A stretch of 24,254 nucleotides of DNA from an uncultured archaeon. Its GTDB lineage: Archaea; Asgardarchaeota; Lokiarchaeia; Sigyniarchaeales; SOKP01. Below, piece by piece: positions 4,163 through 17,571 of the stretch. The stretch spans positions 1 to 24,254 of the forward strand of contig CAYUTF010000027.1 in the NCBI GenBank assembly GCA_964447495.1, read 5' to 3'. The notes below the pieces were generated by a model. That model saw nothing but the letters and a program-made list of their open reading frames with translations. It ran no database searches and was not told the origin of the DNA. Position numbers and translations under genes: made by a program. The number at the start of each line of letters is the position of its first letter. The stretch's first letter is position 1.

Positions 4163-4687
4163 TTAAAATTGAGCTGCGTAATATATTAACCATTTCGCCA
4201 TTGCCTGGAAAGATTCATTTACATTAATGTTTTCTTTAGAAGAACATAAAACACACTGGTTACATTTAGCTTTTATTGCATAATCATGGGCAATTTCTAA
4301 ATCTACCTCATGATTAGGAAGATCCCATTTCATACCCATTAAAATTATAGGAATAAATCCTGCCTTTTGACGTATTATTTTTAACCACTCAGGAATCTCC
4401 CGGAATGTATCATAATCGGTGATATCAAAACATATAAATGCTCCACTAGCACCTTTGCAATAATCGGGGAGTAATTCTCTAAAACGCTTTTCTCCCGCAA
4501 AATCCCATAGCTGCATTTTTACAGACTCTCCCGTATCTAATGTTTCCGATTTAGTGTGAAATCCTGCTCCTATTGTCATTTTATAACCTTCCTGAAATTT
4601 TCCCGTACAGTATCTTGTTATCATCGCAGTCTTTCCAACTCCCCCTGCACCAGCAACAATAACTTTAAAGATCCATGAACTCATCAT
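4163..4687 (-). CDS. Rab-like small GTPase (Ras superfamily)
   Basis: G1 GAGGVGKT, switch I YKMTIGAGF, G3 KMQLWDFAGE, YCKGA, ICFDIT, G4 GMKWD, G5 CSSK; no C-terminal prenylation cysteines. Confidence 0.93.
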   Translation of the reverse strand: MMSSWIFKVIVAGAGGVGKTAMITRYCTGKFQEGYKMTIGAGFHTKSETLDTGESVKMQLWDFAGEKRFRELLPDYCKGASGAFICFDITDYDTFREIPEWLKIIRQKAGFIPIILMGMKWDLPNHEVDLEIAHDYAIKAKCNQCVLCSSKENINVNESFQAMAKWLIYYAAQF

Positions 4688-4834
4688 TATTTATCAAATT
4701 ATTTCTATAATTTTTATTAATAATAAAAAAGAATTTATTTTTATAGTATTGTTTAAGCTAAAATCTGATCCAAATATAAAAATATAATATTGAAAGAATT
4801 AACTATATAAATATATAAATGATCTTAATAGAAA

Positions 4835-4853
4835 TAAAAAAGATTTTTATAAG
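4835..4853 (+). promoter_or_regulatory. Putative BRE + TATA promoter for the aIF1 gene
   Basis: Purine-rich AAAAAAGA followed by TTTATAAG (4846-4853) fits the archaeal BRE/TATA layout; other TATA-like words lie nearby, so the assignment is tentative. Confidence 0.4.
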
Positions 4854-4921
4854 ATTTTATTCTATTATTTTTATACTGAACTATATTAAGTTTTTAATAA
4901 TAAAGGTTGTGAAAAAAGAGT

Positions 4922-5254
4922 ATTAAAGACGACGATATTTGTCCCATATGTAGTTTTCCGAAAGAACTATGTATATGTGATAGTCTAAGCGCGGATGAGC
5001 AACAAATTATTATTTCTAACGATAGAAGGAAATGGGGGAGGGTTGTCACTGTTATTACTTTTGAAGGAAATATTGATGCGAATTTAAAGGATATTTTAAC
5101 AAAAGCTAAGAAAAAATGCGCTTCTGGGGGTACGGTACGAGGAAATGAAATTGAATTACAGGGAGATCATAAATTCAAACTTAAAAAGTTTCTAATAGAT
5201 CTTGGATTTCCTGAAGAAAATATTTCCATTCAAGAAAGAATGAAGCAATCTTAA
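4922..5254 (+). CDS. sui1: Translation initiation factor aIF1 (SUI1/eIF1 family), apparent ATT start; absent from the ORF track
   Basis: Manual translation: (I/M)KDDDICPICSFPKELCICDSLSADEQQIIISNDRRKWGRVVTVITFEGNIDANLKDILTKAKKKCASGGTVRGNEIELQGDHKFKLKKFLIDLGFPEENISIQERMKQS*. It has the archaeal SUI1 Cys-rich N-terminus, KKKCASGGTV and IELQGDH. In-frame TGA at 4910-4912; the only in-frame ATG is at 5240. Identity is secure, start position is inferred. Confidence 0.92.
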   Translation: MKDDDICPICSFPKELCICDSLSADEQQIIISNDRRKWGRVVTVITFEGNIDANLKDILTKAKKKCASGGTVRGNEIELQGDHKFKLKKFLIDLGFPEENISIQERMKQS

Positions 5255-5336: not shown

Positions 5337-5789
5337 ATGAGCGAAATTGTTTTTAAGGTTATACTAAGGGGAAATGAACGAGATGAGAGTTACCAATACG
5401 GTTCGATGATCTTGTCATTTAAAAACATTTTAAACGATAATCTTATCAAAATTCCTTCTCACTATTTATCATCAATTAAAACTATGAGTGAAAAATTTGA
5501 TCATATAATAAGTTTTCAAAATCTTGAGGAAGTAATTACTATTGGAGATTTTTCAAAGGAATATACCATTAATTATTATATCGTTATTTTATATTCAATG
5601 AAATCTGAAGAGAAAAAAAAAGGTTACTTGATAGCAAATATTAAGAAGATTGGAGATGTTTTAATTGGAATTTGGCCATTTACTGAAGAAATAGGTACAA
5701 TTAATCAAGAGAATATTCATGAAAAATTCAATGATTTTATAAAAAATAATGAAAAATATAGAAATTTAGTAATAATTAATCCCAATTAA
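5337..5789 (+). CDS. Hypothetical protein
   Basis: 150-aa ATG ORF filling the space between aIF1 and the PfkB gene; no motif recognised. Confidence 0.7.
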   Translation: MSEIVFKVILRGNERDESYQYGSMILSFKNILNDNLIKIPSHYLSSIKTMSEKFDHIISFQNLEEVITIGDFSKEYTINYYIVILYSMKSEEKKKGYLIANIKKIGDVLIGIWPFTEEIGTINQENIHEKFNDFIKNNEKYRNLVIINPN

Positions 5790-16635: not shown

Positions 16636-17571
16636 TTGGATCTTTCATTATCTCAGAATAATTTAAATTTATGTCCTGAATGTGGGAATACTAGTTTAAT
16701 TTCAGATGAGGCTAGGGGTGAGATAGTTTGCAGTGTATGTGGTTTGGTTTTAGGACAAAGAATAATTGATTCTGGACCCGAATGGAGAGCTTTCTCATCA
16801 GAAGAAGCGAATAAGAAAGTGAGAGTTGGAGCACCAACAACTTTAACTCTCCATGATAAAGGGTTAAGTACTATGATCGGGTGGAAGAATAAAGATGCGT
16901 TTGGGAAATCAATAAGTCCAAAAATGAAAGCGGAAGTATACAGATTAAGAAAGTGGCATGTCAGGACGAGAACTAATAAATCTATTGACAGGAATCTCGC
17001 TTATGCTATGAATGAATTGGATAGATTCTCTTCACAACTAAATTTATCTAAAGATTTAAAAGAATCTGCAGCACATATATATCGAAAAATGGCAATAAAA
17101 AACCTTATAAGGGGTAGATCCATAGAGGCAATGCTAATAGCATCTATTTATTTATCCTGTAGATTAAACAGCATTCCTAAAACCCTTGATGATTTTTTAG
17201 AATTTGCATTGGTTGATAAAAAAAAAATTGCTAGATGCTATCGATTAATAATAAATGAGTTAAGAATTAATATAGGTGTGTCATCACCTATAAATTTCAT
17301 TCCCCGATTCTGTGCCTCTCTGAATCTTTCGGGAAAAACTCAAAATCGGGCTGCAGAATTACTAAAGTTGGCTAAAAAGCATCATATCACTGCAGGCAAA
17401 GCACCTACTGGCTTAGCTGGAGCAGCATTGTATGTTGCTGCTATACAAGAAGGAGAACGTAGAACTCAGAAAGAAATATCTTTAGCAGCAGGGGTGACTG
17501 AAGCTACCATTCGTAATAGATACAAAGAGTTAATAGATCATTTAAAATTTGAAGTAAATATCTATAAGTAA
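16636..17571 (+). CDS. tfb: Transcription initiation factor IIB (TFB)
   Basis: Zn ribbon CPECG...CSVCG, GPEWRAF, LHDKGLST, RLRKW, two cyclin repeats (LIRGRSIE, GKAPTGLA, VTEATIRNRYKEL); TTG start. Confidence 0.98.
   Translation: MDLSLSQNNLNLCPECGNTSLISDEARGEIVCSVCGLVLGQRIIDSGPEWRAFSSEEANKKVRVGAPTTLTLHDKGLSTMIGWKNKDAFGKSISPKMKAEVYRLRKWHVRTRTNKSIDRNLAYAMNELDRFSSQLNLSKDLKESAAHIYRKMAIKNLIRGRSIEAMLIASIYLSCRLNSIPKTLDDFLEFALVDKKKIARCYRLIINELRINIGVSSPINFIPRFCASLNLSGKTQNRAAELLKLAKKHHITAGKAPTGLAGAALYVAAIQEGERRTQKEISLAAGVTEATIRNRYKELIDHLKFEVNIYK

Follow-up and report, generated by a model that had tools for sequence, protein, structure and literature searches.

The aIF1 (SUI1) gene in the analyzed DNA, a stretch of 24,254 nucleotides referred to below as the window, is very probably translated from an AUU codon at 4922 on a leadered mRNA bound via GGTTGTGA, giving a protein that begins MKDDDICPIC. 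The comparison of related sequences strongly supports this start, about as firmly as such a comparison allows. The gene itself is best explained as a working aIF1 gene of a Loki-type (Promethearchaeota) archaeon. Our analysis further makes it moderately probable that aIF1 limits its own synthesis through this AUU, and the combined explanation of a working aIF1 gene, an AUU start and a self-limiting loop that we infer is likewise favored, if modestly. The features of the locus and the further genes discussed below are listed in Table 1.

Table 1. Positions of the aIF1 features in the window and of further genes of the same genome with a Pfam domain upstream of any canonical codon
Feature	Position	Strand	Basis
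Promoter-like block, purine-rich then TATA-like TTTTTATAAG (4844-4853)	4831..4859	+	Near-invariant in same-genus alignment
Shine-Dalgarno-like GGTTGTGA	4905..4912	+	Pairs with 16S 3' end; includes in-frame TGA 4910-4912
Out-of-frame mini-frame GTG AAA AAA GAG TAT TAA	4909..4926	+	TAA overlaps ATT
Spacer, non-coding, 9 nt	4913..4921	+	No third-position pattern, stops present
ATT start codon (probable), read as Met	4922..4924	+	Family comparison, codon periodicity
aIF1 (SUI1) coding sequence, 110 codons + TAA	4922..5254	+	Profile matches, 17 orthologs with 83-93% identity
N-terminal Cys knuckle, CPIC + seven residues + CIC	4940..4978	+	Invariant Cys in Asgard alignment
SUI1 domain	4997..5212	+	Pfam PF01253, residues 29-100 of the 113-residue frame from 4913
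Pfam domain before any canonical codon, part 1	C12:10654-11031(-), C37:19817-20578(-), C32:19700-21004(+), C14:17108-17581(+)	As given	Pfam domain
Pfam domain before any canonical codon, part 2	C1:145684-149154(+), C39:25308-25784(-), C84:393-878(-), C67:8950-9726(+)	As given	Pfam domain
Pfam domain before any canonical codon, part 3	C103:286-765(-), C122:2798-3856(+), C2:23987-24385(+), C74:185-835(+)	As given	Pfam domain

Reading frame, start codon and ribosome-binding site of aIF1

The aIF1/SUI1 frame is intact from 4913 to 5251 (+), ends with the stop TAA at 5252-5254 and translates from 4913 as KKSIKDDDICPICSFPKELCIC..., which matches SUI1. Three in-frame TAA lie upstream of AGG, TTG (4907-4909) and, at once, the in-frame TGA (4910-4912), after which the codons read AAA, AAG, AGT and ATT (4922-4924) and the protein continues KDDDICPICSFPKELCIC.... 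The only ATG, GTG or TTG of the frame after this TGA is ATG 5240, codon 107 of 110 and four codons before the stop. The original prediction described the intact frame, its TTG-TGA 5' end and the late canonical codon exactly. With the codon usage of the genome (ATG, GTG and TTG together 3.93%), a run of 109 codons free of all three has a p of ~0.013. This near-absence is a quirk of the window gene, since internal in-frame ATG, GTG and TTG were not depleted in the ATT-start aIF1 genes of its family f1 (mean 3.06 per gene in 62 distinct sequences, compared to 3.08 in the sister family f2, 3.4 in other Asgards and 3.88 in non-Asgards).

The frame matched Pfam SUI1 (PF01253) with 58.8 bits (cut-off 25.5, E 7e-16) and NCBIfam NF002096 with 110.3 bits (cut-off 98) over profile positions 2-101 of 102; the equivalog TIGR01158 was matched with 75 bits, below its cut-off of 111.65. 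Residues C7, C10, C17 and C19 of the N-terminal knuckle, which we take to bind zinc, were invariant in an alignment of 15 Asgard aIF1 sequences (A1). A Ras/Roc-family small GTPase gene (4163-4687, -; Pfam Ras, E 4.5e-39) is divergent from the aIF1 promoter region, and a 150-codon ORF at 5337-5789 (+) had no Pfam match.

A first search of 40 relatives yielded the 17 same-genus aIF1 orthologs (83-93% identity), all with the same frame and an invariant AAAGGTTGTGAA block, and with the A run interrupted in many. The order-wide search covered 151 genomes, 129 of them with a match, and 60 regions were taken. The pooled f1 set comprised 64 loci from 12 genera outside a clear paralog group, of which one was masked and 63 were readable; these loci are relatives, not independent events. 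In 56 of the 63, the interval from the closest upstream stop to the first Cys contained no ATG, GTG or TTG, which bears out the prediction of an ATT start 9 nt past a Shine-Dalgarno-like site and excludes that the close orthologs all have ordinary starts. Alignment of the 5' ends, as had been proposed, revealed a codon kept at the homologous position 9 nt after an invariant GGTNGTGA: ATT in most f1 genera, ATC in one genus and ATA in another. The seven exceptions each have an in-frame GTG. In six of them (four g14 loci, one g18 and one g21) this GTG lies within the ribosome-binding site and falls in frame because the spacer has 8 nt instead of 9, and a g15 locus has a separate, plausible GTG start. 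In one g12 locus TGA, TAA and TAG are followed by one sense codon and then ATT, and TAG stands one codon before ATT in two g17 loci and one g20 locus.

Sequence variation was analyzed in 39 distinct sequences with the GGTNGTGA-N9-ATH layout, taken from 44 of the 64 loci. The spacer varied by 0.87 bits on average without periodicity, and one or two more in-frame stops were present in it in 10 of the 39. The three positions of the start codon varied by 0, 0 and 0.39 bits (ATT 36, ATC 3), and codon positions 1, 2 and 3 of the coding sequence by 0.26, 0.08 and 0.83 bits. The non-periodic spacer thus gives way to codon-periodic variation right at the ATT, where coding-type constraint begins. In an aIF1 tree of 54 sequences, weakly resolved on few columns, several family subtypes were found, nearly all with such a start. 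The N-terminal peptide predicted for the ATT start is MKDDDICPICSFPK, or the same minus Met.

Upstream of the gene, the promoter-like block was almost unchanged across the 17 same-genus upstream regions, with variable flanks carrying indels; by the archaeal promoter consensus it may be a BRE and TATA box. The aIF1 transcript probably starts at about 4870-4878, giving a leader of ~45-50 nt. The 16S rRNA of this genome ends in GGATCACCTCCT, with which GGTTGTGA is predicted to form a duplex of 3 + 4 bp around a 2x2 mismatch at -7.9 kcal/mol. This ribosome-binding site is not weak: the duplex energies of 1612 ATG-start ORFs have a median of -3.7 kcal/mol, with only 13% reaching -8. The 9-nt distance from the site to ATT falls within the genome's own 4-10 nt range. 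In the 39 distinct family sequences, seven of the eight positions of the ribosome-binding block varied by 0 bits, the sole varying base being the mismatched fourth (T, C or A).

The AAAGGTTGTGAA block (4902-4913) is conserved more strictly than the coding sequence, in at least five genera, and includes two bases unpaired with 16S rRNA, one of them invariant; neither an RNA structure nor another reason for this invariance was found. RNAalifold on 20 family leaders gave -2.16 kcal/mol with no pairs over 4905-4924, and conserved structure over the aIF1 site and start was absent (single-sequence z-score -1.38).

Other origins of the protein were weighed against the AUU. A start at GTG 4909-4911, one base out of the aIF1 frame, would demand a +1 shift on the A run, or termination at TAA 4924-4926, which ends the six-codon frame opened by this GTG, and a restart at ATT. 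Such a course is very improbable, even though the in-frame TGA overlaps an NTG offset by one base (GTGA in the window, ATGA and TTGA in two f2 loci), the A6G of the window looks slippery and the TAA overlaps the ATT. Many orthologs have a broken A run (AAACAAG, AATAAAAAG, AAGAAAGAAC, GATAAGAGAG), the spacer lacks codon periodicity in any frame and contains the stops counted above, its 8-nt form in g14, g18 and g21 brings the GTG into frame, ATC followed by AAA in g16 abolishes the TAA, and the GTG is itself part of the ribosome-binding site and is preceded by no other such site. The mini-frame is probably incidental. A programmed +1 frameshift of the prfB type was rejected, with stops directly upstream and a spacer variable in sequence and in length (8 or 9 nt). 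A start at the second ATT (4937), which immediately precedes the first Cys codon, would likewise use an in-frame near-cognate codon. This ATT is 24 nt from the ribosome-binding site, however, and in the preceding codons for K, D, D and D nearly all variation is at third positions or a D/E exchange, while the f2 starts at TTG, GTG or ATG lie 8-9 codons before Cys; this codon drifts freely among ATT (32), ATC (4) and ATA (3) in the 39 distinct sequences, like an ordinary Ile codon, and is therefore hardly credible as the start.

Least credible of all are explanations by misassembly (A6 in place of A5), by a recent frameshift that left a pseudogene, or by initiation at TTG 4907 with the TGA decoded as an amino acid. 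An A5 run would bring GTG into frame, a second aIF1 copy is present on contig C23, and some ENA predictions read MWKKSIKDDD. Yet a DNA contig from another sample (X3, 316 nt, 4860-5175) had 0 differences and 0 gaps relative to the window, and a metatranscriptome contig (X24, 4890-5038) had five substitutions and no gap; together with the orthologs in the same frame, these uphold the A6 run at 4912-4917. Assembly error is ruled out by the independent contigs and by 56 family assemblies sharing the frame. Purifying selection on the frame is strong, the second copy occurs in few of the genomes with a match, and TGA, TAA and TAG are consecutive in one ortholog; the genome has a tRNA-Sec, and TGA ends its ordinary genes.

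Non-canonical starts in the genome and in aIF1 of other archaea

The window genome (3.81 Mb, 223 contigs, 31% G+C) contains at least 14 further genes that probably start at ATT, ATA, ATC or CTG. A scan for frames of at least 80 codons, with the first canonical codon at least 40 codons in and unshadowed by a longer ORF, returned 113 frames, of which 20 were covered by a Pfam test. In 12 of the 20, the domain begins at profile positions 1-3, well upstream of any canonical codon (Table 1), and two look truncated. Most of the 12 have a GGTGA-like site ~6 nt before ATT, ATA, ATC or CTG; their domains are flavodoxin, NiFe hydrogenase, SMC, Roc/Ras GTPase, ABC ATPase, cytidylyltransferase, Usp, NTP transferase, prefoldin, radical SAM, Fer4 and methyltransferase. 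In the genes for eS26 (C6:10588-10857) and a TFB zinc ribbon (C6:6379-6498), too, no canonical start precedes the conserved N-terminus. The TFB gene inside the window (16636-17571, +) starts at TTG.

Two of these genes were compared with their relatives. Prefoldin beta has ATT in the window genome only, the other aligned f1 loci having ATG or, in four, TTG, in an alignment where distant f2 rows match poorly at their 5' ends; this comparison suggests that ATT works as a start in this organism. The NTP-transferase (nucleotidyl-transferase) gene has ATT in 7 of 10 aligned f1 loci, the window genome's included, and GTT, TTG and ATG in the remaining three, the ATG locus being one that the search placed under f2; seven more distant loci all have ATG. 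A conserved ATT alone is therefore no mark of a fidelity sensor. ORF 5' ends with a binding core at 5-8 nt and no canonical codon nearby comprised ATG (69), ATA (15), ATT (13) and TTG (13). The spacing of ATT and ATA behind ribosome-binding cores showed only a slight rise at 6-7 nt above a background that is high in this AT-rich sequence and thus gives no clean genome-wide count of such starts. At the canonical codon frequency of the genome, only a fifth of such genes would clear the 40-codon filter, which as a rough extrapolation suggests a total of at least 65 or so, ~2% of genes.

The second aIF1 copy, at 57% identity, is located on contig C23:10873-11208 (L002 1474-1845), with a perfect GAGGTGA (-12.0 kcal/mol) 8 nt before ATT (ATA in relatives). 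In-frame GTG and ATG lie upstream, and the GTG makes its start less certain. Paralogs of this type form their own clade and were found in no more than about 10 of the 129 matching genomes; among them, L083 is a pseudogene carrying a Cys-to-Tyr change and a stop. By protein or Pfam model, no SUI1 match was obtained in the same-genus genomes G009, G012, G017, G018 and G023 (completeness 82-100%), which may be due to binning or assembly. In the whole window genome, aragorn predicted 43 tRNAs, or 56 with introns allowed, tRNA-Sec among them; in this incomplete assembly it found no initiator-like tRNA, the one tRNA with a CAT anticodon being not initiator-like.

Beyond the family, the 13 f2 loci start at TTG (6), GTG (1), ATG (3) or ATA (2), with one ambiguous between ATA and an in-frame GTG, and all three loci of families f3 and f4 have ATG. 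From other Asgard families outside the order 53 loci were taken, of which four were without a recognizable knuckle and 49 were read: 27 have ATG, 10 GTG, 11 no canonical start, and one is ambiguous. The 11 non-canonical loci have CTG in f6 and the Thor-type f9, and ATA in f11, f17 and one f16 locus. Among the best-scoring 80 loci of a scan with one peptide pattern and one genome per species, which extended to Bathyarchaeia, Thermoplasmata, methanogens, Woese-, Aenigm- and Altiarchaeota and others, every one of the 58 non-Asgard aIF1 loci has an ATG, placed 2-6 codons ahead of the Cys knuckle. A weak aIF1 start as a pan-archaeal trait is rejected by these 58 of 58, a single Aenigmatarchaeota locus included. 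Such starts thus appear, by sequence comparison, to cluster in Asgard archaea.

The partner gene aIF1A served as a control in the same Asgard genomes: in each of its 40 loci a canonical start precedes the conserved domain, and the 11 genomes with non-canonical aIF1 are all among them. Its first canonical codon (L323-L362, n = 40) is TTG in 22, ATG in 10 and GTG in 8, and both copies of the window genome start at ATG. The aIF1A start often seems to be a TTG directly before a PKK or KKK motif, weak yet canonical.

The public annotation of the gene is uneven. The original prediction that gene callers would miss or mis-start it applies to JGI, ENA and Logan, where the predicted proteins are cut to 74-90 aa at internal codons or, on short contigs, TGA is read as W. 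It fails for NCBI, whose records (105-113 aa, named 'stress response translation initiation inhibitor YciH') begin MKDDD... and are thus annotated from the ATT. Predictions such as P0003 (115-119 aa, short ENA contigs) begin MWKKSIKDDD, with TTG taken as the start and TGA read as Trp, probably because the caller selected genetic code 4 on account of the AT richness of the contigs. Starts at ATT, ATA and CTG occur often enough in this family for genuine genes, aIF1 among them, to be shortened or missed by callers of the Prodigal type, and such calls distort marker-gene counts and gene-content comparisons of Asgard genomes. No paper reporting or discussing an archaeal aIF1 with a non-AUG start was found in the literature searched, most subscription journals lying outside it.

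Proposed self-limitation through the AUU and its relation to known systems

The leadered aIF1 mRNA very probably binds the 30S subunit through its above-average, imperfect Shine-Dalgarno site, with initiation 9 nt downstream at the AUU, read as Met by the initiator tRNA. In the proposed loop, as aIF1 destabilizes initiation complexes on near-cognate codons, a rise in its level would lower initiation at the AUU of its own gene and a fall would raise it; the output of the other AUU- and AUA-start genes of the lineage would then depend on that level as well. Such a loop requires that discrimination against AUU by this aIF1 be dose-dependent within the physiological range. For S. solfataricus aIF1 in vitro, the accessible text of PMC4705826 describes a 30S complex that binds an AUG, not an AUU, model mRNA. 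In the accessible text of PMC6237735, the analogy to eIF1 is drawn and the start of the aIF1 gene itself is unmentioned. The wide tolerance of the lineage for AUU and AUA may mean that its aIF1 discriminates poorly, which would weaken the loop.

The main competitor of the self-limiting loop is ordinary expression tuning, in which AUU and AUA serve as weak starts in perhaps 2% of genes and aIF1 is kept scarce without any meaningful dependence on itself. This is a possibility to be taken seriously, although on balance we doubt it. It is favored by the 12 of 20 tested ORFs with Pfam domains upstream of any canonical codon, by eS26 and a TFB as added cases, by the NTP-transferase gene, with ATT retained at 7 of 10 f1 loci, and by the frequencies of ATA and ATT behind binding cores, level with TTG and below ATG. 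In contrast, the partner gene aIF1A never has such a start (0 of 40 loci), the prefoldin ATT is restricted to the window genome, and six or more Asgard families have an aIF1 gene that has gained ATT, ATA or CTG. Even a residue of discrimination on the part of aIF1 would suffice to make the weak start on its own mRNA a feedback. The repeated near-cognate starts in Asgard aIF1, their absence from aIF1A and the ATG of non-Asgard aIF1 argue for a role specific to aIF1, as far as sequences can tell.

In E. coli pcnB and other AUU-start genes, the weak start merely limits expression. The window gene resembles pcnB in having a weak AUU as a brake, as seems to be the case for the other ATT- and ATA-start genes of its genome; pcnB encodes no fidelity factor, so no loop arises there. 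The prfB gene (RF2) is autoregulated by a +1 frameshift. Like prfB, aIF1 is a translation factor gene with an SD-like element beside an in-frame TGA, and control through the monitored step is proposed for it. Unlike prfB, it has no upstream frame to shift from, as three TAA precede AGG, TTG and TGA, and its orthologs have no conserved shift site.

The closest bacterial parallel is infC, encoding IF3, which has an AUU start and translational autocontrol (Butler et al. 1987, cited in the accessible text of PMC4705826). The infC loop is proven by an AUU-to-AUG mutation. Like infC, the window gene encodes behind an AUU a factor rejecting non-canonical starts, the codon is conserved among relatives, and the logic is self-limiting, for aIF1 as a proposal only. 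Unlike the case of infC, the aIF1 loop is deduced from sequence, and the proteins IF3 and aIF1 are not related. E. coli has very few AUU starts. In this respect the window genome, with its many AUU starts, differs from E. coli and its infC.

Eukaryotic eIF1 is autoregulated through an AUG in poor context (Ivanov et al. 2010, cited in the accessible text of PMC4705826 and PMC6237735). The aIF1 protein is its homologue through the SUI1 domain, and in both cases a weak initiation site is present on the factor's own mRNA. Unlike in eIF1, where the weak point is the Kozak context of a scanned AUG, in aIF1 it is the codon, an AUU preceded by a Shine-Dalgarno site. Weak aIF1 starts are concentrated among the Asgards, yet 27 of the 49 Asgard loci outside the order have ATG.

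A broader reading, which we put forward only tentatively, is that Asgard aIF1 repeatedly took near-cognate starts, making its concentration a homeostat for the stringency of initiation at its own gene and at an AUU/AUA regulon, and that this arrangement predates eukaryotes. The codons would be AUU, AUC and AUA in Loki-type families, CUG in Thor-type families and AUA elsewhere, and the regulon in this genome would include TFB, eS26, prefoldin beta, SMC and a hydrogenase. If this were true, e/aIF1 would have controlled itself by start-codon stringency before eukaryotes arose, and such control would form part of the Asgard heritage. Should aIF1 limit itself through its AUU, all three domains of life would control the proofreader of initiation by the very step that it proofreads (IF3, eIF1 and aIF1), and the archaeal case would lie in the closest known relatives of eukaryotes, with a homologue of eIF1. 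The AUU start of aIF1 also offers a testable handle on the start-codon strictness of Asgard ribosomes.
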